Shown in pieces: positions 1 through 18,447 of a DNA stretch of 64,000 nucleotides (within the stretch, counting starts at the first letter, position 1; every line of letters starts with the position of its first letter). The stretch comes from Candidatus Latescibacterota bacterium. GTDB lineage: Bacteria > Latescibacterota > UBA2968 > GCA-2709665. The position numbers and the translations under genes are program-made. Location: NCBI GenBank assembly GCA_965208835.1, contig OZ242358.1:2656001-2720000 (forward strand), written 5' to 3'. The notes below the pieces were generated by a model. It worked only from the letters and a program-made list of their open reading frames with translations. It had not been told where the DNA came from and searched no databases.

Positions 1-1038
1 AATCTGGTACTGCTTCGGGAGCTGACGGCAGACTTGAAACGGCGTATGGACGTGCTGTCGACGGTATATAATGTACGAACCAGCTTCCAGGACGGTCAAC
101 CCGAGGTGGACGTCGTGCTGCGGCCGGAAGTCACAGCGGCGTTCGGCCTTACCTCACAGAACCTCGTGCGTGAACTCGAGCGCAGACTCGGCGGCGAGGA
201 AGCCGGAGAACTCTCCAAGGACCAGCGTGCGCGAACCATCCGGGTGGGGTTCGAAGACGTGGATCTTCGTGAGTTGGAACATGCGAGAATCGACGGCCCC
301 GACGGGGCAAGGCTCACGCTGGGAGACCTCGCCGACCTTCGCGTGGTCCAGGGTCCAAGAGAAATTCTGCGTGACGGTCAGCGCAGGGTGGGGAGGGTAT
401 CCGCTTTTCTGACCGAAGGCGTGGTCTTGAGCCAGGCGGCAACGCAGATCAGACAGGCGGTCAGTCAGATGGCCATTCCACACGGGTACCGGATAACCAT
501 AACCGGCGAGGAACGGGAACGTGCCGAATCGTTCGGAGGCCTGCAATTCGCCCTTCTGCTTTCCGTGGTGCTCGTCTACATGGTCATGGCATCGCTCTTC
601 GAGTCTCTGCTGCATCCGTTTACCGTGATGCTGACCGTGCCGCTGGCCGGCATCGGGGTGGTGTTCGCATTCTGGGGACTGGGAGAGGCTTTCGGCGTGA
701 TGGCTTTCATCGGAGCGATCATGCTGGGAGGCATCGCGGTCAACGACGCCATCATCCTGGTGGACCACATCAACCAGTTGCGGCGGAAAGCGGGCGATGT
801 CAGGATGGCCGTCCTCCAGGGCGCGCAGGATCGTCTGCGTCCCATCCTGATGACCAGCGCCACGACCATTCTGGCACTGCTGCCCATGGCGGTGGGTGTC
901 GGCGAAGGCGCCCGCCTGCGGGCGCCGATGGCAGTGGCGGTTATCGGCGGATTGGTGACGTCCACATTAATGACCCTGGTGGTGATTCCAGTCGTCTACG
1001 AAATGATCGAACGGCTCAGAAACAGGAGGACGGCGTGA
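1..1038 (+). CDS. RND (AcrB/AcrD/AcrF family) efflux permease, C-terminal part (5'-truncated by the window edge)
   Basis: Frame is open from base 1. C-terminal RND motifs: LVYMVMASLFESLLHP, GIAVNDAIILVD, RLRPILMT, IGGLVTSTLMTLVVIPVVY. Confidence 0.93.
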   Translation, partial: NLVLLRELTADLKRRMDVLSTVYNVRTSFQDGQPEVDVVLRPEVTAAFGLTSQNLVRELERRLGGEEAGELSKDQRARTIRVGFEDVDLRELEHARIDGPDGARLTLGDLADLRVVQGPREILRDGQRRVGRVSAFLTEGVVLSQAATQIRQAVSQMAIPHGYRITITGEERERAESFGGLQFALLLSVVLVYMVMASLFESLLHPFTVMLTVPLAGIGVVFAFWGLGEAFGVMAFIGAIMLGGIAVNDAIILVDHINQLRRKAGDVRMAVLQGAQDRLRPILMTSATTILALLPMAVGVGEGARLRAPMAVAVIGGLVTSTLMTLVVIPVVYEMIERLRNRRTA

Positions 1039-4000
1039 TTCTCCCCGATCTTGCGGTCCGGCGGCCGGTCACCACGTCCATGTTCTTTGCCGCGTTCGCC
1101 ATATTGGGGGTGGTGTCGTGGACGAGGCTCCCCATACAGCTTTTTCCGGAGCTGATCTTTCCGGAGGTATATGTCACGCTGACGCTGCAGGGGGCCTCTC
1201 CGGAACAGGTAGAGAGAGATCTGCTGATTCCCGTCGAAGGCGAGATCGGCAAACTCGACGGCGTCCAGGAGATGGAATCGTTCGCGATGGCAAACAGGGG
1301 GGGTGTCCGGGTATCCTACGCCCCCGACGTGGATATGAAATTCGCCCTGCTTCAGCTGCAGAGCAACCTGAACCGATTGCAGGCATCGCTGCCCGAACGC
1401 ACGCAGACCGATGTACGGAGGTTCGATTCGACCGATCTCAGCAGCAGCATTATGGAGCTTCACGTGCTTGCCGACTGGGACCTGAACCAGTTGCGGGAGT
1501 TCGCGGAGGAAAAGATCCGACCCGAACTGGAGTCTGTCGACGGCGTCGTGAACGTATCCGTATTGGGCGGGCGCCGCAGCGCGGTTGAAATCGTCCTGGA
1601 TCCGTTCCTGCTGGAAGCGCACGGCCTTTCGACGGGCCAGGTACGGACACGCCTTAACAGCCACAACCGGAGACGTGAGTACCTGGGTCGGGTATACGAC
1701 GGGAACCGGGCCTATTCGGTTAGCATTCAGGGACAGTTTACGGACCTGCACCAGATTCGCAATCTCGTCTTGAACGAGGACGGCACGCTCAGGTTGGGCG
1801 ACGTCTCGCGGATCAGGCACGGACTTCAGGAGCAGGCCGATCGGCACAGAGTCAACGGCAAACCTTCTGTGGGCGTGCGCGTCCAGAAGGACGACGAAGC
1901 GAATCTGATCGAAGTGGCCGCTGACGTGGAAACCGCCGTTGGCCGGCTGAATCGGAATCTCGAGAGTGAGGGTGTGGAACTGGGCGTGAGTTCCTCCCAG
2001 GCCGATCTGATGACGGGGGCGCTCTCCACCCTGAAACAGGCGGCCATCGTCGGTGCCGTGCTCGGGCTCATCGTACTCTTTCTGTTTCTTCGCAACCTGC
2101 GTTTTGTCTCGGTCCTCCTGCTGGCCATCCCGGTCTCCCTCCTGATGACCTTTAATCTGATGTACCTGGGCGGGCTGTCCGTCAACGTGCTGTCGCTTTG
2201 CGGTCTCGCGCTCGCGATGGGAATGCTCGCGGACAACGGCATCGTGGTGATGGAGAATATCTTCAAACACTACGAACGAGGAAAGTCGCCCGCGCGCGCG
2301 GCACGGGACGGGGCGTCCGAAGTCGGGCGCGCGGTGATCGCGGCGACAGCAACCACGGTAACCGCATTCCTGCCGGTTCTGTTCATCGAAAGCGACGCAC
2401 GAGACCTGCTGCGTGAACTCGCGTTGTCCATGGCGTTTCCGCTTGTGGCTTCGCTGCTGGTGGCGCTTACGCTTGTCCCCGCCCTTGCCGTCCGCGCATT
2501 GAGCAGCGAGGTCCGGCAGCCGCCGGACGTCCGTGGCCTGCTCGAACGGTATACCATGCTGTTGAAGGCCGCATTGCGGCACCGTGCATCTGTGGTCCTG
2601 GCGGTCGGCGCCGCCCTTGCGCTGACACTCGTCCTGGCCTTCTTCTACCTGCTTCAACAACAGGTACGGAGGGAGGAGACGCGCTTTACGGTTTACGTGA
2701 ATCTGCCGGAAGGCGCCACGCTGGATGCCACGGATGAGGTTGTGAAACAGGTGGAGGAATCCGTACGGGACGTGCCCGGTCTGGATCGCTTTACGGCGTC
2801 GGTCCGTGAGGCCGAGGCCGACGTAAACGTCCTGCTGCATAACCGTTCCGGGCGGCCCGGTGGTATCTCGCTGGATGAAATCAAGGAACAGCTGGACGAG
2901 AAACTGCAGAATGTACAGGGAGGTGTCGTTGGATACGAACCCAGGCCCAGGGCGGGGAGGGGGGGCCGTGGGCAGGGGATAGGTCAACGCCGGCGGCGCA
3001 GTTCCGGAGGGTTCGATCTGACCGGAACCACGCCTGCAGAGCAGGTCGTGGTACGCGGATACGACTTTACGATACTGACAATGATCGCGAACGACGTGTC
3101 ATACCGGCTTGAGGAACTCGAGGAGGTGGATGCCAACAGTGTACGTGCCGACGCCGAACGGAGTTCGCCCGAGGTCCAGGTGATTCCCGACGCGTCGGCC
3201 CTGTTCGACAGGCGGCTCGACACGCGGGAGGTCCTCGCTGCAATGGGTGACACCCGATGGGACGGGTTCAGAACGACCGTTCCGTTTCTGCTGCCCGATG
3301 CCACCGAGATACCCATCGAAGTGCGAACGATCGAAGAGGAGGACCGCGACCGGTACGGGCTGTCTGAATTCCGGCGTTCGCGCATTCTGAACCAGGACGG
3401 CCACTACGTACCTCTTAACGAAGTCGCCCGGGTCCGGACGGACGAGGGCAGAAGCAGCCTGTTGCGGACCGACCAGACTCGCCGGCTCGTGGTTTCGTAC
3501 AGGTTTCCATCGGAAGTTCTGGATTCTCAACCACGATTGGATCTTGCGAGGCGGGCGGTGCGCGCGACGCTGCAGGATATGCTGCTTCCCGAGGGTTATT
3601 CGATCGAAGTCATCGAGGCACACGAGGAGATGATTTACTATTGGATGATGGCAATAGCCGCGGTACTCATCTATATGATTCTGGCCTCGCTGTTTGAATC
3701 TCTCTCCTCTCCGATAATCATCCTGTGTACGCTTCCGCCCGCGGCCATCGGCTCCTGCTGGGCGCTGATGATGTCAGGTACGGGCCTGAGCCAGCAGGAG
3801 GGTCCCATGGCGCTACTGGGCTTCATCGTCCTGCTTGGTATTGCGGTGAATAACGGGATTATCCTGATCGACGCCGTCGGTGTGCTCAGATCCCGATTCG
3901 GCTATCGTCGGGAACGCGCCGTACTGGCGGCCGCGAGATCCCGTGTAAGACCCATCCTGATGACAACGGCCACCACGCTGCTGGGCGTTCTTCCGCTGGC

Positions 4001-5747
4001 GCTGGAATTCGGCGGCGATTTTGAGATCTGGCCACCCTTCGCAATCACGGTACTGGGCGGATTGTCGGTCTCCATGGTGTCCACGCTGATCCTGATTCCA
4101 GTCGTATATATGGGACTGGATCAAATCGGAGATTGGCTTGCAGATATGGGGTTAATCGGCGTCGCGCTCTCGCTGCTGGCCACGGCCGCGGCCGGCTACG
4201 GCATATTTGTCCGATATGAAAGCACCTTCTGGGCAAGCCTGTCGATAATACCACTCTGGATTGTCTTTTTGACCGTGGCGTGGATCATCCAGAAGGTACA
4301 TCGCTCGCGAGTCGCCGCCCGCCGCGTGTCGAGCGCCGTACACGCCATTCAGTTGAGAAACCTTACCAAGATTTACGGTGCACCCGGACGATTCGTGCGG
4401 GAGTGGGCGCGTGATGAGCGCCGGCGCGGGCGGCTGATGAAAACAGGTCTGGATCCGCAGGACCGCAAGGCGATCCGCGACGCACTCTTTTGGAAGCTGC
4501 CTTTGCTTGCGCTGTTGTCGTTATTCACCGCCTATTTCGAAGACGAAATCTGGGTCTATCTGCATGGGTTGGCGTTGGCCTTTATGGTGGCCCACGTGGG
4601 TCGATGTTTCGCAGACCTCCGCCAGTGGCATCTGCAGGCGCCGTTCGCTGCCATTGTCAGACTGCTGAACAAAGTCGTTCTTCCACTGACGCTTATCGCC
4701 TATGTGCACTGGCGGCTGGACCTGCTTTCGGTCACGCTTGCCACATTCGGACTGTGGGCCGCCTATCGTCTGGCACGCCGGCTTGCAAACCGGGTACGGA
4801 CGGGCGAGATCGATCCTGATGCCCTGTCGGGACGTCTTCTGCGACCGCGCCGGTGGTTCTATCAGATGGCGTCGGCGCTGCCTATTATTGGCGTTCCCCG
4901 GCGGGAATTTCGGGCGCTGGCTGGCGTCAACCTGGAAATCGGCAGGGGGATGTTCGGTCTTCTGGGTCCGAATGGCGCCGGCAAGACCACGTTGATGCGT
5001 ATTCTCTGCCGTGTACTCGAACCCAGCTACGGGTCCATTCTGATCGACGGCCGAAATATCCCGAATAAGGGTTCGATCCATGGACTGATCGGGTACCTGC
5101 CACAGCACTTCGGCAACTACGGACACCTTTCCGCATACGAGTTTCTGGAGTATAGAGCGCTGCTCGAGGGCTTCAAGGACAGAAAGATTCGCGAGACCCG
5201 GGTGATCGAATCTCTGGAGCAGGTCAATCTGAGCGAACGAAGAGACGATCCGATCGGCTCTTTTTCGGGCGGAATGAAGCAGCGCCTCGGCATCGCGCAG
5301 ACGCTCCTGCACGCCCCGCTGATCGTCGTCGTGGACGAGCCCACGGCGGGACTCGATCCGTTGGAGCGTATCCGGTTTCGCAACCTGCTCGCCAGGCTGA
5401 GTCAGGATCGCATCGTCATTTTTTCCACGCATATCGTGGAAGACATCTCGGGAAGCTGCAATCGGCTGGCGGTACTGGACCAGGGGCGTCTACTGTATAC
5501 GGGAACGCCGGGGGAGATGAGAAATCTGGCGGCGGGCCGGGTGTGGGACGCGGTGGTTCCGGACGGACGCTTTTCCGACATGGAGGAACAACTGAAGCTC
5601 ATATCGCACCAGCGAACCCCCGACGGCGTCCGGATGCGATTCCTGTCGGAACGGGCACCGGCCGGAATCGGCGCACAGATCGTGGACCCAACCCTGGAAG
5701 ACGCATATCTCTACCTGCTTGGCGGAGGGGAGGGACAGCCGTGCTGA
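1035..5747 (+). CDS. RND permease fused to a C-terminal ABC ATP-binding domain (1570 aa)
   Basis: GTGA overlap with the upstream RND. RND motifs: AVRRPV, MLADNGIVVMENI, RVRPILMT. ABC motifs: Walker A GPNGAGKTT, Q-loop YLPQ, signature FSGGMKQR, Walker B VVVDEPTAGLD, switch STH. Confidence 0.92.
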   Translation: MILPDLAVRRPVTTSMFFAAFAILGVVSWTRLPIQLFPELIFPEVYVTLTLQGASPEQVERDLLIPVEGEIGKLDGVQEMESFAMANRGGVRVSYAPDVDMKFALLQLQSNLNRLQASLPERTQTDVRRFDSTDLSSSIMELHVLADWDLNQLREFAEEKIRPELESVDGVVNVSVLGGRRSAVEIVLDPFLLEAHGLSTGQVRTRLNSHNRRREYLGRVYDGNRAYSVSIQGQFTDLHQIRNLVLNEDGTLRLGDVSRIRHGLQEQADRHRVNGKPSVGVRVQKDDEANLIEVAADVETAVGRLNRNLESEGVELGVSSSQADLMTGALSTLKQAAIVGAVLGLIVLFLFLRNLRFVSVLLLAIPVSLLMTFNLMYLGGLSVNVLSLCGLALAMGMLADNGIVVMENIFKHYERGKSPARAARDGASEVGRAVIAATATTVTAFLPVLFIESDARDLLRELALSMAFPLVASLLVALTLVPALAVRALSSEVRQPPDVRGLLERYTMLLKAALRHRASVVLAVGAALALTLVLAFFYLLQQQVRREETRFTVYVNLPEGATLDATDEVVKQVEESVRDVPGLDRFTASVREAEADVNVLLHNRSGRPGGISLDEIKEQLDEKLQNVQGGVVGYEPRPRAGRGGRGQGIGQRRRRSSGGFDLTGTTPAEQVVVRGYDFTILTMIANDVSYRLEELEEVDANSVRADAERSSPEVQVIPDASALFDRRLDTREVLAAMGDTRWDGFRTTVPFLLPDATEIPIEVRTIEEEDRDRYGLSEFRRSRILNQDGHYVPLNEVARVRTDEGRSSLLRTDQTRRLVVSYRFPSEVLDSQPRLDLARRAVRATLQDMLLPEGYSIEVIEAHEEMIYYWMMAIAAVLIYMILASLFESLSSPIIILCTLPPAAIGSCWALMMSGTGLSQQEGPMALLGFIVLLGIAVNNGIILIDAVGVLRSRFGYRRERAVLAAARSRVRPILMTTATTLLGVLPLALEFGGDFEIWPPFAITVLGGLSVSMVSTLILIPVVYMGLDQIGDWLADMGLIGVALSLLATAAAGYGIFVRYESTFWASLSIIPLWIVFLTVAWIIQKVHRSRVAARRVSSAVHAIQLRNLTKIYGAPGRFVREWARDERRRGRLMKTGLDPQDRKAIRDALFWKLPLLALLSLFTAYFEDEIWVYLHGLALAFMVAHVGRCFADLRQWHLQAPFAAIVRLLNKVVLPLTLIAYVHWRLDLLSVTLATFGLWAAYRLARRLANRVRTGEIDPDALSGRLLRPRRWFYQMASALPIIGVPRREFRALAGVNLEIGRGMFGLLGPNGAGKTTLMRILCRVLEPSYGSILIDGRNIPNKGSIHGLIGYLPQHFGNYGHLSAYEFLEYRALLEGFKDRKIRETRVIESLEQVNLSERRDDPIGSFSGGMKQRLGIAQTLLHAPLIVVVDEPTAGLDPLERIRFRNLLARLSQDRIVIFSTHIVEDISGSCNRLAVLDQGRLLYTGTPGEMRNLAAGRVWDAVVPDGRFSDMEEQLKLISHQRTPDGVRMRFLSERAPAGIGAQIVDPTLEDAYLYLLGGGEGQPC

Positions 5748-6463
5748 ACTGGCGGGAACTGCTGTTGACCACGTGGCGGCTTTATCGGCTGAGCTGCAGG
5801 ATCATCTTTCACAGGAAACTGATGTTCATGTCCATTGGCATCCTTGTCTATTACGCCGCCATGTACGCATTCGCGGTGTGGCGTCCCGACGAAGGATTCG
5901 GCGTATCGAGGGCGCTCCATGTTCTGGTTGAAATTCCCGGCATCGCACTGGCCATCTATCTGACGATGGATCTCGTCGCTGGCGAACGTGACAGGAATAC
6001 ACTGGAGACGTTGTTCAGCACAACCTCGTCGCACTACAGGATCTGGACGATTCGAATGTTGGGGGTCTATCTGGTGCTTGCGGGAACACTAACGGGAATG
6101 ACGATTGTCGCCTACTTCTTCTTCGCGGAACTGCCGATCCTATGGGGCGGGTTGAACGCCTTTCTGCCGGCGTGCTTTGCAGCGGGGCTCACTTTTTACT
6201 TTTCCGTTCTCTGTCGAAGCGGAAACGCGGCCGCAATGCTCGCAACGGGCGTGATGGGCCTGACGCTTGTTGCCTCACAATCAATGCCCGACTCGCCCTT
6301 CGTGCTTTTTCTGGATACGTTCGATCCCCCGGTGGGAATGGAAGACACGTTGTGGGGCGACCGCGTACTGCTGAATCGCATGGCGGTCGCGCTGCTGTCG
6401 GGCCTGCTGCTTCTTATTGGTCTTCGCAAGATGGAAGCCAGGGAAAGATTGGTATCTTCGTAG
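5741..6463 (+). CDS. ABC-2 type transporter permease
   Basis: GTG start overlaps the stop of the fusion gene. About 6 hydrophobic segments and an ABC-2-like motif AGERDRNTLETLFST. Confidence 0.8.
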   Translation: MLNWRELLLTTWRLYRLSCRIIFHRKLMFMSIGILVYYAAMYAFAVWRPDEGFGVSRALHVLVEIPGIALAIYLTMDLVAGERDRNTLETLFSTTSSHYRIWTIRMLGVYLVLAGTLTGMTIVAYFFFAELPILWGGLNAFLPACFAAGLTFYFSVLCRSGNAAAMLATGVMGLTLVASQSMPDSPFVLFLDTFDPPVGMEDTLWGDRVLLNRMAVALLSGLLLLIGLRKMEARERLVSS

Positions 6464-6516: not shown

Positions 6517-7659
6517 CTATTCCCTGCTTACATCCAATCGGACCTTCCGGGGAACGACGTTTACGACCGCCAGGTCCGTCCCGTGCCTTACCGACTCGGT
6601 GCCGAATTCAAAGGTTCTGCGTCCAAACCTCACGTAACCGGCGTCGATAACGAGTTGGAAGTCGTCCACGGGCGCCAATAGGATTGCACGACGCGGACCC
6701 TTCATGGTAACGTCTACGACGGCAGGTGTAACGCCCTTCAGCTTATAGCCACGTGGCAGATTCTCCACGCCGACCTTCACTTCGTATGTCGTTTCCCGGA
6801 CCGCCGCGCCGGGTACCAGAAACATCCACGCGCAGAACGCCAGCACGAGGGAAACCAACCCCTCCGCAAGACGCCGCACCAGCCGGCCCCGTCCGTTTTT
6901 CCGCCCGCCGGCGACCACGTGCTGCGCATGTTCCTGCAACCTGGCCAGAAGTTCAACCGGGTCGCCTACGACTTCCAGCACTCCCTGTTGCGCCACGGAG
7001 ATGGTGCCGCGCTCTTCGGAGACAACGAGGCACAGGGCATCGCTGCGTTCGGCCAGCCCGAGCGCAGCGGCGTGGCGGGTGCCTCCCGCGCCGAGTTCGG
7101 TGCGGTTTTCCGAAAGCGGCAGATGTACGGCGAAACGCTCCAGTTGGTCATCTTTCATCACCAGAGCCCCGTCGTGGCCCGCCGACGACGTACCGAACAG
7201 GCTGTCGATCAGCTCTTCACTGATATTGGCCTGTAGCGCGATCCCGCCCTGCAGAAGCCTGTCCAGCGGCTCTCGCCCGGGCAGGACCACGAGGGCGCCC
7301 CGCCGCTTCACCGCCAGCTGATGAATCGCACGAACCAGCACCGCCAGGCTGCCTCCTCGGGGCCGGGATACCCGTCTGCCGAGGCCCAGCGCGGCAATCT
7401 GTTCGAACAGCCGCCGGAGGTCGTCCTGAAATACAACGACAAGCAGCACAACCAGCACTGCGAAAAAACCCTGGAATATCCACGCCGTCAGCTGCAGTTC
7501 GAATTGCCGGGCCAGCAGATAGAAGACGCCCAGAAACGCCAGCCCCACAAGCGCCATTCGCGCGTGCATTCTCCGTGTCCAGGCAAGCAGACCCCAGATC
7601 AATACACCCACGACCGCTACGTCCACCAGATCGGCAAATGCGATGTCCATTAACGCCAT
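6517..7659 (-). CDS. cdaA: Diadenylate cyclase (CdaA/DacA, DisA_N domain) with N-terminal TM helices and a C-terminal TM + YbbR/CdaR-like domain
   Basis: Three N-terminal TMs, VVVFQDDLRR, GALVV, HDGA, GTRHAAALGLAERSDA, VVSEERG; C-terminal VENLPRGY...VDVTMKGPR is YbbR-like. Confidence 0.88.
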   Translation of the reverse strand: MALMDIAFADLVDVAVVGVLIWGLLAWTRRMHARMALVGLAFLGVFYLLARQFELQLTAWIFQGFFAVLVVLLVVVFQDDLRRLFEQIAALGLGRRVSRPRGGSLAVLVRAIHQLAVKRRGALVVLPGREPLDRLLQGGIALQANISEELIDSLFGTSSAGHDGALVMKDDQLERFAVHLPLSENRTELGAGGTRHAAALGLAERSDALCLVVSEERGTISVAQQGVLEVVGDPVELLARLQEHAQHVVAGGRKNGRGRLVRRLAEGLVSLVLAFCAWMFLVPGAAVRETTYEVKVGVENLPRGYKLKGVTPAVVDVTMKGPRRAILLAPVDDFQLVIDAGYVRFGRRTFEFGTESVRHGTDLAVVNVVPRKVRLDVSRE

Positions 7660-7741
7660 TTCGGGGGTTCTGCGGCTGTGAAATTCAGGCTTCCGAATGC
7701 TAAAGCATACACTTGAGCGGTGGATTTATCCACCGGTACGG

Positions 7742-7770
7742 AATATGGGCAATCTTTCACATTTCGTCAA
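7742..7770 (-). promoter_or_regulatory. Putative sigma70 promoter for cdaA
   Basis: TTGACG-17 nt-CATATT on the minus strand. Confidence 0.55.
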
Positions 7771-7892
7771 GACCCCGTCCGGTATTCATCAATAATCCGG
7801 CGAATGCCCGCCGGGTACCGTGACACCCTGATCGTCGCGGGGTCCGCCGACCGCTTCGTGAAACGGAATTGCCCGTTGTACCCGTCTTTCGC

Positions 7893-7921
7893 TTGGCCGG
7901 TACCCGGAAAATACATATATT
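7893..7921 (+). promoter_or_regulatory. Putative sigma70 promoter for the TPR/lyase operon
   Basis: TTGGCC-17 nt-TATATT. Confidence 0.45.
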
Positions 7922-7992
7922 TATCGACTCCGGAATCAACAGGAAATGGATACCGATTCATCAGGCGCTGTTACGGCATGGAGGTAAGTGAT

Positions 7993-8673
7993 ATGCAGGG
8001 TACACGGGGACGGTTGACCAGACGGGAACTCAGGCAGGACGAGTTTGTCAACAGAATACTGGCGGCGTGGGCCTATGTGGAAGAGAACTATGTCCGGGTG
8101 CTTGCCGCCGGCGGGGGAGTGGTTGTCCTGATCCTGCTCGGCGTATTCGTCATGCACCAGATGGACGCCCAGGCCATGGAGGCGGTGGAGGCGGAGGGCC
8201 GGGTCCGGGTACTGCTGCTCCAGGGGAGGGTCGACGATGCCATTCTGGACGCGGAACGCGTTGCGGAAGCCTATAGCGGAGATGCGGCAGCGGGGCGGGC
8301 GCTTCAACTGGCTGGCGGTCTTTATTTCGAAACCGGACGCTACGCGGAGGCGCGTGCTGCATTCGAGAGATACCTGCAGGCGTTCGACGGGGGAGGACCC
8401 GCGAGGTACAGCGCCTGGTCCGGTATCGCGGCCGCAATGGCAGAAGAGGGTGATCAGGCAGGTGCGGCAGCCAAATACCTGGCGTTCGCCGACGAATTCG
8501 TCGACTCGCCGTTTGCGCCCAATGCGCTAAGGGAGGCTGCGCGCTGTTACAGACTATCGGGCGATACAGTCCAGGCCGGAACGCTGCTCCAGCGCATCCT
8601 GGACCGTTATCCCAGAAGCCCGGTTGCGCAAAGCGCCGGGGAGGAACTCAATCAGATGGGTGGTGTCGGATGA
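7993..8673 (+). CDS. Membrane-anchored tetratricopeptide repeat protein (YfgM/CpoB-like)
   Basis: GGAGG RBS before ATG 7993; N-terminal RLTRRELRQDEF, one TM, TPR helices, C-terminal RYPRSP. Confidence 0.78.
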   Translation: MQGTRGRLTRRELRQDEFVNRILAAWAYVEENYVRVLAAGGGVVVLILLGVFVMHQMDAQAMEAVEAEGRVRVLLLQGRVDDAILDAERVAEAYSGDAAAGRALQLAGGLYFETGRYAEARAAFERYLQAFDGGGPARYSAWSGIAAAMAEEGDQAGAAAKYLAFADEFVDSPFAPNALREAARCYRLSGDTVQAGTLLQRILDRYPRSPVAQSAGEELNQMGGVG

Positions 8674-11600
8674 CGGATCCGGAACTGAAAACGACCCGGT
8701 CACGCGAATTCAACCCGACCGACCTGGCCGACGATATCCTGCTGGTGGTACCTGACGATATGTTGCGCCATTCCGCTGTCGCCAGCGTTCGCGACGCGGT
8801 GGGGAAGGTGGGACGACCGCCGGAAACGATCCCTCAGGGATGTTTCCGACCGGAGCAGTTCCGGGAAAGGCATGTCATTGCATTCGGAAATCTGGCAAAT
8901 AACCGGGCGATCCAGCGATTATACACCGCCCGGTGTTGTTTTGTGGATACCTTGTTCCCTGGCGCGAACGGCTATCTGGTCAAGTCGATTTCAGATCCGT
9001 TCGGATACGGCCGCAATTGCATTGTCGCGGGTGCCAGTTCCGATGATGGACTGGCGGCGGGCCTCGGCGTTTTCACGGACATCGTCGCCGCCGGCAACGG
9101 CTGTCTGGACCGCGTCCACGCCGCGTCTTCGGGACCGGAAATGCCCCTCCCGCCGGATGCTTCGGAGATCAACCGGATGGTACGGGACGATCTGAAGATC
9201 TGGGGAACGGGGTGGTCGGCTTCGCCGTTTCGCGGAGGCAGGCTGCTGACATATCTCTGGCGTCATTACCTCACGGACCACCCGGTCTGGGCGCGAGCGG
9301 CGGTGGAAATCCTGAAGGGATCCATAGAACCGTGGCGCGCGGAATGCCGTGCGCACCCGGAGGCCTACCACTGTTTCTTCAACCTGCACCTCTATATTCA
9401 TCTATGGGACCTCGTGGAAGACAACCCGCTGTTTACGCGGGAAGACCGTCTGGGGGCCGTCACGATGTTCGCCGAGTTGCTGAGGCATCTTATGAAGCTC
9501 TCGTACGTCTCGGAGGAAGTGAATCCTCCAGGTGAAATCCGGCAGAACCACACGACTTTCATCGGGTTGAACCTGGCGGTGGGCGGCGACTACATGACAA
9601 GGCGGCACGGAATTGGGGAGTTTCGACGGGCGAACGAAATCGCAAGCCGCATATTCGAAGGTCAGATGGACTGTTACAAGCCCGATGACGATGGGGGAGT
9701 GGGGTACGTCTGGCACACGCCCCAGGAAACACTCAGCTACTCTCTGTACCGCGACGACGACCGTTACCTGACCGGGGGCCACGTGGCGGACCTCTGCAAA
9801 CTGGCCGTTGTCACCACCGATAATATGCGCAGCGAATGCGGTTACGGCGATACCTCCGGGTATTCTGCATTCGCCACAGACGGATGGGAAGCGCGCCTCT
9901 GGCCGTTGATGGTTTCGACCTGGTATCGTCCGGACCCCGGACACCTCTGGACGTTGAACTGGCTGGGCGAGGGAAAACGGCCTCCAACGGACGGGGCGCT
10001 GCACGGCCTCTATTCGGCGGTCGAGTACGTGGGCGACCGCTTCGCCATTGAAGGATGCGCGCCGGAAGCGCCCCGCGATCTGCTTGGAATCTGCGTGATG
10101 GATATGCCCGATGCGGTGCTGTCCTGGGTGCGTCGATATACCCCGCAGGCGCATCATCCGGACCCCCGCAGACGGTATTTCGACAAGCTGTCGCTGCGCC
10201 GTAATTTCGAGCCGGGGGGCGAGTACCTGTTGCTGGAAGGCATCGGCACGACCTGCCATGGCCACGAAGATACCAACGCGATCATCCGGCTGACATGGAA
10301 CAACAGGGCCTGGCTGGCGGACGGGGATTACATCCGGGCGGCGCCCAGGTTTCACAATTCCGTCACGGTCATGCGCGACGGCGTGGGAGTCCTCGAGTCG
10401 CCCGGTGAGGGCGTTGTCATTCCCCCTCTGGCATCCTTGAGCATCGGTAACGACGGCGCGGAACTCGCGACGCTCCGTTCCGAAGCCGCAGGATACAACG
10501 GCGTGGACTGGCAGCGCGACATTTTCTGGCGCAAGAGCCGCTATATGGTGGTCCTGGACCGGCTGCGCTGCCACGAAGCGGGTGACTATCGTCTGCAGTG
10601 TCTGTGGCGGACGGTGGGGGACCCGGCGCTCGAGGAGGAAGGGGTTCGCATCCGACAGGAGGGAGAGGAATTTCATATCCGTAACGCGGACGGTTCGTCG
10701 CAGGAAATCGTACCGGATCCGCACGTCAAGAGCCGATGGGGGAGCTATCCTTATTCGGACGGGACGATTTCCGTACTGCATCAGCGAACCGGGTGTACTC
10801 TCGATGCGGGAACGTCGTTTACCTTTTTGAATCTGCTTACCCCGGACCCCGACATCCGTATTGAGCGGATCGGTGCTGACGCGGTAAAGGTGACGGATGG
10901 AGACGAAGTCGCTCTGTTGGGCGCCGGGACCCTTGATTTGGATGGTCTTCAGCTTTCGGGAAGCATGTTCGGGTGCCTCGCCCAAGGCAATCGCGCGGTC
11001 CTGAATGGCGTCGAACGGCTGGGCGGACGAGCGGTCGGCAGCGATGAACGGGCACTGGACGATCCCGAGTTTGCGACCCGTATCCGCCGTGCGCCGGAAG
11101 CATCTCCGGCAGCCCGGCCCGCAGACCGCCCTCCGGTTTCCGGCGGGCCGTCGGAACGATGGCGCCGCGAATTCCCGCACAGGATTCGCCACGTCTGCGT
11201 CTCAGACGAAGACGAATTGCTTCTTGCGTATGGCACGGAGGTCGCGTGTCTGTGTGCGGCGAACGGCGATACGGCCTGGTCCCGGCCGATTGACGCGGAA
11301 GGCGGCGCCAGCCGCGTGCATCTGTCGGATATCGACGGTGACGGGAATTCGGAAGCAATGGTGGGTACCGAAGACTCGCAACTGGTTGTTCTGGTAGGGG
11401 ATTCGGGTGTGGAACGGTGGCGGCGCGGAATGGCGAATATGTTCAATCGCGGTACCCGGGTGTCCGCCATTGCGGTGGCCGACCTGGAGGGGAACGGCGA
11501 CCTGAGCGTGCTTGCCGGTACCGAAGGATGGTTTGTCAACGTGTTTGCGAACGACGGCAGCCCCAGATGGGCCGAGTGGTTTCGATATCACGCCATCACG

Positions 11601-12212
11601 GCGTTGACAGTCACAGACACGGACGGCGATGGCAGGGCCGAGGTTCTGGCTGGCACGGAATATTACACGCCGCTGACGGTACACAACTTCGACGGTTCGT
11701 TTCGCTGGTCCACGTTCGAGCAGGTTGGATCGCACGGCAACGCCACAACGCCCAGGCGCGGCATCGGTCTGAAACATATGGTGCTGTGCGACCTGGACCG
11801 CGACGGCGTTCTGGAAATCGTTTACGGCACGGAGGACGGTTGGATCTATGCCGTGAAACCGCAGGACGGCGAGGAAATCTGGCATGTCAATCTCGTTGGG
11901 GAGATCACAGGGCTCGTCGCCCTGGACGATGTCATCGTCGCGGCGTGCGAATTCGGCGTGCTGTACGGGCTTGATTTCAACGGGAATATGGTATGGCATC
12001 GGAACGAAGCGCAATGGATCCACGCGCTGGCCGAATCAGCCGGTGTAATCGCCGCCGCGGTCAACCGGCGGGAGATCCGGACGTACGATCGGGAGGGACG
12101 CTGCCAGGGTTCGCTGGAAATGCCCGCAAACGTCACGTCGCTCACCGCGGCCAAAGACGGATTCGTCTGTGCCGATGAACGGGGCGTCGCAATGATTGAT
12201 CTCCAGGCATGA
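8670..12212 (+). CDS. Large heparinase II/III-like lyase with a C-terminal FG-GAP/PQQ-like beta-propeller
   Basis: QNH, HGHEDTN and HNSV motifs; four DxDxDG-type repeats (DIDGDGNSE, DLEGNGD, DTDGDGRAE, DLDRDGVLE); ATGA overlap with the TPR gene. Confidence 0.65.
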   Translation: MTDPELKTTRSREFNPTDLADDILLVVPDDMLRHSAVASVRDAVGKVGRPPETIPQGCFRPEQFRERHVIAFGNLANNRAIQRLYTARCCFVDTLFPGANGYLVKSISDPFGYGRNCIVAGASSDDGLAAGLGVFTDIVAAGNGCLDRVHAASSGPEMPLPPDASEINRMVRDDLKIWGTGWSASPFRGGRLLTYLWRHYLTDHPVWARAAVEILKGSIEPWRAECRAHPEAYHCFFNLHLYIHLWDLVEDNPLFTREDRLGAVTMFAELLRHLMKLSYVSEEVNPPGEIRQNHTTFIGLNLAVGGDYMTRRHGIGEFRRANEIASRIFEGQMDCYKPDDDGGVGYVWHTPQETLSYSLYRDDDRYLTGGHVADLCKLAVVTTDNMRSECGYGDTSGYSAFATDGWEARLWPLMVSTWYRPDPGHLWTLNWLGEGKRPPTDGALHGLYSAVEYVGDRFAIEGCAPEAPRDLLGICVMDMPDAVLSWVRRYTPQAHHPDPRRRYFDKLSLRRNFEPGGEYLLLEGIGTTCHGHEDTNAIIRLTWNNRAWLADGDYIRAAPRFHNSVTVMRDGVGVLESPGEGVVIPPLASLSIGNDGAELATLRSEAAGYNGVDWQRDIFWRKSRYMVVLDRLRCHEAGDYRLQCLWRTVGDPALEEEGVRIRQEGEEFHIRNADGSSQEIVPDPHVKSRWGSYPYSDGTISVLHQRTGCTLDAGTSFTFLNLLTPDPDIRIERIGADAVKVTDGDEVALLGAGTLDLDGLQLSGSMFGCLAQGNRAVLNGVERLGGRAVGSDERALDDPEFATRIRRAPEASPAARPADRPPVSGGPSERWRREFPHRIRHVCVSDEDELLLAYGTEVACLCAANGDTAWSRPIDAEGGASRVHLSDIDGDGNSEAMVGTEDSQLVVLVGDSGVERWRRGMANMFNRGTRVSAIAVADLEGNGDLSVLAGTEGWFVNVFANDGSPRWAEWFRYHAITALTVTDTDGDGRAEVLAGTEYYTPLTVHNFDGSFRWSTFEQVGSHGNATTPRRGIGLKHMVLCDLDRDGVLEIVYGTEDGWIYAVKPQDGEEIWHVNLVGEITGLVALDDVIVAACEFGVLYGLDFNGNMVWHRNEAQWIHALAESAGVIAAAVNRREIRTYDREGRCQGSLEMPANVTSLTAAKDGFVCADERGVAMIDLQA

Positions 12213-18234: not shown

Positions 18235-18275
18235 CGGGGGGCCTCCCGGCAGTCACGCGATCAGTCCTGGCTCAG

Positions 18276-18436
18276 TGTCCTGTCCCAAAAATTCCTCACC
18301 ATTCGACCGCCGATTCATCCCGTCTCGCTACGTTCCCCTCGCTCGCCGACCTTACGCAGGTCGCCTGCGCTCCGGCGCCTTGCAAGCCAGGCGACTCCGC
18401 GGTCGAATTCAGGCAACTTATTTCCGGGACAGGACA
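18276..18436. mobile_element. 161-bp MITE, family B
   Basis: Perfect terminal IR TGTCCTGTCCC...GGGACAGGACA, flanked by TCAG on both sides; internal IR ATTCGACCGC/GCGGTCGAAT. Confidence 0.75.
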
Positions 18437-18447
18437 TCAGCAAAACC

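Follow-up and report, generated by a model that had tools for sequence, protein, structure and literature searches.

A conserved locus with an RND permease–ABC ATPase fusion and a candidate hard-wired envelope-export system

The analyzed window comprises 64,000 nucleotides (nt) of a Candidatus Latescibacterota genome (assembly GCA_965208835.1, contig OZ242358.1; G000:C1:2656001-2720000, where G000 is the source genome, and coordinates prefixed L001 refer to the locus including its upstream flank). Its positions 1-6463 are occupied by three co-directional genes that encode a resistance-nodulation-division (RND) permease, RND1, a second RND permease joined to an ATP-binding cassette (ABC) ATPase, RND2::ATPase (hereafter E), and a small putative ABC-2 permease, F. 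Sequence comparisons support the fusion in E as genuine and under selection. We propose, at even chances of being right, that the cluster belongs to a conserved envelope-export system made from two normally separate kinds of pump and working as a hard-wired two-stage relay. Tripartite efflux is viewed as powered either by RND pumps, which are proton-driven trimers, or by ABC transporters, which are ATP-driven dimers. Their natural covalent joining raises the questions of whether two energy sources can couple, how a trimer is matched to a dimer, and whether two-step efflux, across the inner and then the outer membrane, is sometimes hard-wired.

The fused gene and its distribution

Gene E (window 1035..5747, + strand) is an open reading frame (ORF) of 1570 amino acids (aa), whose translation matches both ACR_tran and ABC_tran and whose full length is kept in relatives. 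The ACR_tran match covers aa 5-1027 (E-value 2.3e-184, 615.4 bits against a cut-off of 28, profile positions 3-1019 of 1021), and the ABC_tran match covers aa 1297-1438 (E-value 1.9e-26, 93.7 bits against a cut-off of 25; both Pfam). The ATPase part has a Walker A motif GPNGAGKT (aa 1311-1318), a Q-loop YLPQ (aa 1354-1357), a signature FSGGMKQR (aa 1410-1417), a Walker B motif IVVVDE (aa 1430-1435), a D-loop AGLD and an H-switch STH (aa 1464-1466), in agreement with the sequence-only reading of this DNA, which had described a 1570-aa RND2 with an intact ABC nucleotide-binding domain (NBD). The catalytic residues are invariant across 69 aligned sequences, which argues that the fusion is under selection.

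A search for the combined architecture with E aa 1000-1570 as query recovers both ACR_tran (PF00873) and ABC_tran (PF00005) in all 120 homologues listed. Most of these proteins are 1540-1646 aa long, their identity to the query ranges from 89% down to 39%, and their named organisms belong to Gemmatimonadota, Acidobacteriota, Latescibacterota, KSB1, Krumholzibacteria, and Calditrichota. As sequences these proteins are not new, since automatic annotations already show the two-domain architecture; for instance, some homologues carry the JGI label 'multidrug efflux pump subunit AcrB/ABC-type multidrug transport system ATPase subunit', and a protein atlas contains several clusters of 64-143 members in which every member has both domains. 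As the family signature we used the 271-aa linker at aa 1030-1300. A ten-sequence profile of this linker, searched across 168 genomes of the phylum, identified it in 84 genomes, in single copy (18/21, 29/31, 22/76, and 13/13 by family, and none in several small families), and it is also present in 4 of 401 sampled genomes of Bacteroidota, the phylum of a Bacteroidales carrier. A stop codon or frameshift that splits the RND and ATPase parts, the outcome that the sequence-only reading had named as contrary to its proposal, was not seen in the linkers of 37 out of 41 related genomes; 35 of these 37 frames reach 1575 aa or more, and the remaining two come from fragmented contigs. Among 1.84 billion representative proteins the linker matches 48 clusters, and all full-length matches contain it at aa ~1020-1300. 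The short matches look like fragments; P0153 alone (526 aa, starting at transmembrane helix (TM) 13) is a candidate split form and, by its sequence, could be a genuine one. The chance that an assembly or frameshift artefact joined separate RND and ABC genes is negligible given the uninterrupted frame and the conserved linker in 84 genomes of the phylum and in Bacteroidales, and we regard an assembly artefact as excluded by these comparisons. The system is present in half of the sampled Gemmatimonadota-like genomes, in the other groups named above and in a few Bacteroidota; the carrier groups are abundant in soil and sediment, and their envelope biology is poorly known.

A separate locus search with a generic ATPase motif found true fusions in 2 of 80 loci among the matches listed (L002 and L003). 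Apparent triple fusions of RND1, RND2, and the ATPase, seen as open frames of 2000-2600 aa in one genus, were rejected, as BLAST of four loci revealed out-of-frame upstream extensions of separate genes.

The last 345 codons of RND1 lie within the window (1..1038, +). The gene had been called partial, which holds for the part cut by the window edge; the entire gene (L001:13955-17038) starts 2045 nt upstream of the window and encodes a complete protein of 1027 aa, across the whole of which ACR_tran matches (E-value 3.4e-223). Its stop codon overlaps the GTG start of RND2 by 4 nt (GTGA), with AGGAGG upstream, and the stop codon of E overlaps the GTG start of F by 7 nt (GTGCTGA), with a GGAGGGGAGGGA stretch upstream of the F start. 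These overlaps bear out the earlier description of three overlapping, apparently coupled genes, and to judge from them RND1, E, and F are translationally coupled.

The RND core of E (aa 1-1029, window 1035..4121, +) is delimited by the Pfam match, hydropathy, the alignment with MdtB (9lyq_B), the comparison with paralogues, and motif positions. In addition to the full-length profile match, it has 12 TM helices, with hydropathy peaks at aa 12-34, 337-486 (five), 519-537, and 869-1024 (five), and two large periplasmic loops that follow TM1 and TM7. Its best solved sequence match is MdtB (E-value 1.8e-86). The best-matching NCBIfam model, RND_permease_2 (NF033617), scores 527.6 bits with RND2 and 628.5 bits with RND1, both below its cut-off of 1250, and the two permeases are 33% identical. 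The proton relay of the AcrB type comprises Asp-Asp in TM4, Lys in TM10, and Arg in TM11, whereas RND2 has Asp400-Asn401 in TM4 and Asn939-Asn940 in TM10, where Asn replaces the Lys, and keeps the TM11 arginine (Arg972). We considered that proton coupling was lost via the fusion and rejected this explanation, since the same pattern is common to most unfused paralogues: among 12 RND paralogues of the source genome, all but one of them unfused, TM4 reads 'DN' in 7, TM10 reads 'NN' or 'ND' in 11, and the TM11 Arg is present in all 12. The pattern is thus a subfamily trait and no sign of lost proton coupling, and RND2 is as likely to be proton-driven as its neighbours. The whole family retains both energy sites, namely the full ATPase and the TM4 Asp with the TM11 Arg. 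The periplasmic part of RND2 also contains a Gly/Arg-rich low-complexity loop, RPRAGRGGRGQGIGQRRRRSSGG (aa 637-659, window 2943-3011), at a position where the family consensus is Gly-rich as well.

The split ATPase and its predicted membrane partner

An AlphaFold2 (AF2) model of E aa 1000-1570, built from the 69-sequence alignment (mean predicted local distance difference test score (pLDDT) 85.8, predicted template-modelling score (pTM) 0.68), shows the order TM12, TM13, TM14, strand beta1, a charged helix, four long helices and one short helix, strand beta2, Walker A, and the remaining ATPase. TM13 and TM14 (aa 1038-1087, window 4146..4295, +), which join RND TM12 to the ATPase, are helices in the model, with hydropathy values of 1.2-2.4 in all ten aligned members. 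Strand beta1 (IQLRNLTKIYG, about aa 1104-1115, window 4347..4379, +) was assigned by its position in the model and by its match to the N-terminus, 'GLTKIYPKG', of the paralogous ATPase A encoded in the same locus. The beta1-beta2 loop contains an insert of ~175 aa (aa 1116-1290, window 4380..4904, +), which was recognized by AF2 secondary structure, hydropathy, and comparison with A. The four long helices of this insert (aa 1144-1164, 1171-1196, 1202-1228, and 1231-1255 in the model) are hydrophobic throughout the ten family members compared, in which the best 19-residue Kyte-Doolittle means range from 0.6 to 2.5. The ATPase core from beta2 to the H-switch (aa 1291-1500, window 4905..5534, +) is identified by Pfam ABC_tran, the invariant motifs, and the Foldseek and VIA fold searches, and the C-terminal beta-rich domain (aa 1501-1570, window 5535..5744, +), which is common to A, by AF2 strands and by the A/E alignment that extends through 'P.LEDAY.Y'.

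The NBD fold of E is not contiguous, as the chain exits for ~175 residues between beta1 and beta2, whereas the same loop of A has 6 residues. The insertion point is fixed by A, which reads 'GLTKIYPKGTVPALDSVDLEIGKG' where E reads 'NLTKIYGAPG', then about 170 residues, and then 'FRALAGVNLEIGRG'. The early strand takes the position that the first strand has in solved NBDs: the VIA ranges begin at model residues 102-105, against residues 1-2 of the matched chains. The best VIA match is TM_1403 (4yer_B; Z 28.7, root-mean-square deviation (rmsd) 3.2, 264 aligned residues out of 277), with which Foldseek agrees, and NosF (7qba_B) is matched with Z 24.1 and rmsd 4.8 over 274 aligned residues. The VIA matches, all of them to ATPases, span model residues 102-568 and barely cover the extra TM helices. 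According to the model, the ATPase fold is complete, but between beta1 and beta2 its chain detours into the membrane.

Gene F (window 5741..6463, +) encodes a 240-aa ABC-2/NosY-like protein with about six hydrophobic helices, as judged by its start and overlap with E, hydropathy, a weak Pfam ABC2_membrane match, a family of ~240-aa proteins, predicted binding to the ATPase, and co-occurrence with E. The sequence-only reading had already taken it for an ABC-2 permease, with a start at 5543 (306 aa) that is probably too early: a 40-sequence family alignment begins at the Met/Val of 5741, and its members are 238-244 aa long, so the start at 5741 is the most likely one on sequence grounds. The Pfam match is weak (ABC2_membrane_3, E-value 2.4e-3, 17.4 bits, under the cut-off of 31.6), and some F homologues have precomputed PF12679 or PF12698 assignments. 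The putative assignment of F as an ABC-2 permease finds better support in the conserved ABC-2 'ERDRNTLE' motif, which follows the second helix, in the names given by several sources, which call F homologues NosY-type ('multi-copper enzyme maturation permease'), and in the model of its complex with E. The F family is tightly conserved; F also has an N-terminal amphipathic helix, and a homologue with 92% identity is labelled Gemmatimonadota.

The complex of E aa 1030-1570 with F was modelled with both partners given as alignments and with three controls. The E-F runs reached ipSAE values of 0.65, 0.66, and 0.66, against 0.00 for the best of the three controls; they share at least 86% of their contacts, and the partner pLDDT is at least 73. 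In calibration, 58 of 80 solved complexes attained the mark applied to E-F, compared with 2 of 110 mismatched pairs. The modelled interface joins the helical subdomain of the ATPase (aa 1322-1383 and 1422-1426) to the amphipathic helix (aa 6-24) and the coupling motif (aa 85-101) of F, and corresponds to the canonical ABC-2 interface. The model points to F, short of proof, as the membrane partner of this ATPase.

Operon partners and gene order

Mapping of the upstream neighbourhood, in which the sequence-only reading had expected further components, revealed that its three genes are correct but form the downstream half of a longer operon with the order A, B, membrane-fusion protein (MFP), RND1, E, F; the upstream genes A, B, and MFP, like the membrane insert of the ATPase, had been missed. 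A (L001:8031-8921) is a DrrA/GldA/NosF-like ABC ATPase of 296 aa, B (L001:8925-12323) is an ABC-2 permease of 1132 aa with an M1-like domain, and the MFP (L001:12368-13453) has 361 aa and an RND_mfp match of 191 bits against a cut-off of 94.9. A and B are separated by 3 nt, and MFP and RND1 by ~500 nt. The order B-MFP-RND1-E-F is found in all nine fetched relatives (54-92% identity), with A adjoining in seven of them, and the order MFP-RND1-RND2 in 15 out of 15 loci examined. Two Bacteroidales loci, at 34-40% identity, have the same order plus a TolC-like outer-membrane factor (OMF), namely A-B-OMF-MFP-RND1-E-F. The presence of an MFP in the operon, and of an OMF in Bacteroidales, makes a trans-envelope pump plausible.

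The fused ATPase and A are 47% identical (E-value 2e-84), including the C-terminal domain, and A is the closest paralogue of the fused ATPase in the three genomes checked (44% versus 35-36% for the next). By this comparison the fused ATPase looks like a duplicate of A that gained a membrane insert and a link to RND2.

B comprises an ABC-2-like membrane domain of about seven helices, followed by a large periplasmic domain. Its AF2 model (mean pLDDT 80.5, pTM 0.77) is matched by Foldseek to the M1 aminopeptidases IRAP, ERAP, and APN with E-values from 2.2e-19 to ~1e-16 over ~650 columns, at 10-14% identity and query-normalised TM-scores of 0.3-0.4, which assigns the periplasmic domain to the M1 fold; the Pfam Peptidase_M1 match is weak (E-value 1.6e-3). 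The HExxH and GxMEN motifs occur in none of 48 aligned B family members, so this domain is predicted to be a catalytically dead pseudo-peptidase. The C-terminus of B is a Golvesin_C domain (E-value 1.6e-15), and the only solved sequence relative of that domain is the C-terminal domain of a xanthan lyase (6f2p, E-value 2.2e-6). Several sources give B homologues, too, the NosY-like name 'multi-copper enzyme maturation permease'. The membrane domain of B has no detectable similarity to F (hhalign probability 0.8%); both proteins have the ABC-2 coupling motif 'E..D/E...T/G.LE'.

Gene co-occurrence was tabulated in the 168 genomes as raw counts, in which related genomes are non-independent. F is present in 81 genomes, each of which also has E, and it directly follows E in every case; the three E-positive genomes without F are assemblies of 84-86% completeness. 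B and E are both present in 81 genomes and both absent from 81; three genomes have E only (58-86% complete), and three have B only (76-90% complete, one with a weak partial match). As far as gene content can tell, this pattern is that of one system.

Several further observations concern A and B. Extra B-like paralogues are located off the RND locus in G053-G065 (family f10), G022, G024, G027, and G091, with up to 4 matches per genome, and one of the copies in G022 has in-frame stops. In the same genome (L107:4977-6589, -) an unlinked A follows a 201-aa ORF without a Pfam match, and no ABC-2 permease gene adjoins it; this gene context discriminates between none of the models considered below.

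The gap between MFP and RND1 holds a dispersed repeat of ~187 bp (L001:13542-13728, G000 2653542-2653728, ~2.3-2.5 kb upstream of the window), another copy of which is located at window 18275-18440. The 5.18-Mb genome has roughly 60 near-full-length copies with 70-92% identity, plus many fragments, on both strands, and the repeat resembles a miniature inverted-repeat transposable element or a repetitive extragenic palindromic element. The same gap measures ~237 nt in same-genus relatives (L098), and the genes overlap in other genera. A 54-nt stretch 3' of the repeat (L001:13730-13785) is 91-94% conserved in this gap of two same-genus genomes and overlaps a GC-rich hairpin followed by TTTTTTT, which may act as a terminator or attenuator between A-B-MFP and RND1-E-F.

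Proposed mechanism, alternatives and known systems

In the proposed relay, the ABC module would spend ATP on bringing the cargo, by transport or extraction, from the cytoplasm or the inner leaflet to the periplasmic face, and the RND trimer, still proton-driven, would capture it periplasmically and expel it via the adaptor and an outer-membrane channel. RND1 and RND2 would form a heteromeric pump with its own periplasmic adaptor and, in Bacteroidales, its own outer-membrane factor. A NosF/DrrA-type ATPase is tethered covalently to the C-terminus of RND2 through the two extra TM helices; F would be its membrane partner, and A and B, with the dead M1-like periplasmic domain of the latter, would belong to the same system. 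ABC ATPases function as dimers, and MdtB2C is reportedly a heterotrimer of 2:1 stoichiometry; a similar heterotrimer of one RND1 and two RND2 subunits would present exactly two ATPase domains and a seat for an F dimer. The pseudo-peptidase scaffold of B and its carbohydrate-module-like C-terminus are only a hint of a peptide or glycoconjugate cargo. The suggestion of a single trans-envelope machine, made from the window alone, is supported in part, by the genuine fusion, the synteny across phyla, the predicted docking of F, and the MFP and OMF genes. We infer the assembly of RND1 with RND2, its stoichiometry, the direction of transport, the energy coupling, and the cargo.

Several points weigh against the relay. 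The trimer of the RND part and the dimer of the ABC part are reconciled only by assumption. The confident E-F model may reflect the likeness of this pair to solved ABC-2 pairs such as NosFY, and in the same model of aa 1030-1570 the extra TM helices of E are not in confident contact with F. An orthologue of A (66-68% identical) is located more than 0.4 Mb from the locus in three genomes, namely the two fetched relatives in which A does not adjoin B and one more of the same genus. The operon of the source genome is without an outer-membrane factor, and the at least eight OMF genes of this genome all lie beside other RND genes. Given the gap, the repeat, and the hairpin with its T-run, A-B-MFP and RND1-E-F may be separate transcripts in this genus. 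Finally, we found no experiment, expression data or structure for any family member.

The evidence does not separate the relay from a heterodimer of A and E or from gating of the RND permease by the ATPase. In the former case, which we consider unlikely, an asymmetric ABC transporter would be built on RND2: the fused ATPase would pair with A, the membrane halves would be F and B, or F and the six extra helices of E, each RND2 would carry a whole ABC unit, and the pseudo-peptidase of B would be placed beside the RND porter domain. This arrangement is consistent with the sister-paralogue relation of the two ATPases, the co-occurrence of A and B with E and F across phyla, and the coupling motif common to F and B, and it would involve no mismatch between trimer and dimer. 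However, both ATPases have canonical sites, without the degenerate site that is typical of obligate heterodimers; A-B and E-F, with their 3-nt spacing and 7-nt overlap, are adjacent pairs at opposite ends of the operon; and the membrane domains of B and F are not detectably alike. In the latter case, a minor possibility in our estimate, the ATPase and F would act as a mechanotransducer, as in MacB, FtsEX or NosDFY, that gates, assembles or powers the TM domain of RND2 via TM13-14 and the insert. The ATPase is wired to the membrane at two points, by TM13-14 before beta1 and by the four hydrophobic helices after it, which exceeds what a flexible tether needs; F is almost without periplasmic loops; and the nearest structural relatives are NosFY-type transporters, which are said to drive periplasmic partners rather than bulk substrate movement. 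On the other hand, RND2 has the same relay residues as its unfused paralogues, with no evident need of a second energy source, and the insert lacks a confident contact with F in the complex model, which was made without the RND core.

Two further arrangements differ in how tightly the halves of E are coupled. At one extreme, E could be two independent pumps that share a locus and a polypeptide, with a fusion that is neutral or convenient for co-expression. Both halves look self-sufficient, one with full RND features and the other as a full ABC ATPase with its own permease; however, the fusion, the linker, and the gene order are all retained between Gemmatimonadota-like genomes and Bacteroidales despite an identity of 34-40%, F is never seen in a genome without E, and the linker is always RND-fused in full-length matches, with P0153 alone as a possible split form, and we regard such independence as highly improbable. 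At the other extreme, the system could be one machine that draws on ATP as well as on the proton gradient, the first such transporter: the split ATPase, with membrane anchors on either side of strand beta1, would drive the RND TM domain directly, RND1 and RND2 would assemble 1:2 with two F and two ATPase domains, and one coupled cycle would carry the cargo, maybe a peptide or glycoconjugate handled by B, from the inner membrane across the outer membrane. We regard this as less likely than not, though with a real chance; if true, such a dual-energised pump would be categorically new.

The two-stage relay combines traits of several known systems. As in MdtABC, a pair of adjacent RND permease genes follows a single MFP gene; RND2 finds its best solved match in MdtB, and a 2:1 heterotrimer would give two copies of the fused ATPase; in contrast, MdtB and MdtC have no ATPase, extra TM helices or ABC permease partner, and the heterotrimer is predicted here by analogy. 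The fused ATPase and A resemble NosF of NosDFY (7osf_B, Foldseek E-value 7.2e-19, and 7qba_B, Z as above), including a C-terminal regulatory-type domain; the former, however, forms one chain with an RND permease and is interrupted by a membrane insert, and the Pfam matches of 12 neighbouring genes include no NosD, NosL or NosZ. The operon shares with MacAB-TolC and YbhGFSR the combination of an ABC ATPase with a membrane-fusion protein, and in Bacteroidales with an OMF too. MacB, however, contains four TM helices and a periplasmic domain of its own, whereas the periplasmic conduit here is a full RND permease, and YbhFSR is not known to have an RND component. In co-operative two-step efflux, single-component inner-membrane pumps feed AcrAB-TolC, and the RND pump takes the cargo periplasmically; the proposed logic is the same, with the difference that the known pumps are separate proteins and here they form one polypeptide. 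SecDF, a proton-driven protein of the RND superfamily, aids an ATP-driven translocation machine (SecYEG/SecA) according to a review, but it is unfused to the ATPase, is not a trimeric pump of the HAE type, and has no MFP or OMF.

The kinds of components are thus all known: an HAE-type RND permease, an MFP, an OMF, a NosF/DrrA-type ATPase, an ABC-2 permease, and an M1 fold. Three combinations of them appear undescribed, namely the fusion of an RND permease with an ABC ATPase, the ATPase split by a membrane insert, and the fusion of an ABC-2 permease with a dead M1 peptidase. We found no description of an RND–ABC ATPase fusion in the full-text literature, in a search that left subscription journals, TCDB, and supplements outside; the passages of PMC8277102 and PMC5595328 on fused, hybrid, chimeric or novel architectures do not mention one. 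No characterised family with this architecture turned up, in line with the initial suggestion of an undescribed system.

Downstream of F, the operon is closed by a convergent gene for a CdaA-like diadenylate cyclase (DAC plus CdaA_N, window 6517-7659, -), followed by genes for a tetratricopeptide repeat (TPR) protein (window 7720-8673, +) and an FG-GAP/PQQ beta-propeller protein of 1180 aa (window 8670-12212, +). In some relatives (L093, L095, and L100) the TPR or the propeller gene has a homologue close to the pump locus, and a looser association of these genes with the locus is possible. Outside the window, the source genome encodes an unusually long RND paralogue of 1338 aa (G000:C1:1687409-1691425, -), which adjoins an OMF gene and is 36% identical to RND1 across its first ~550 residues.

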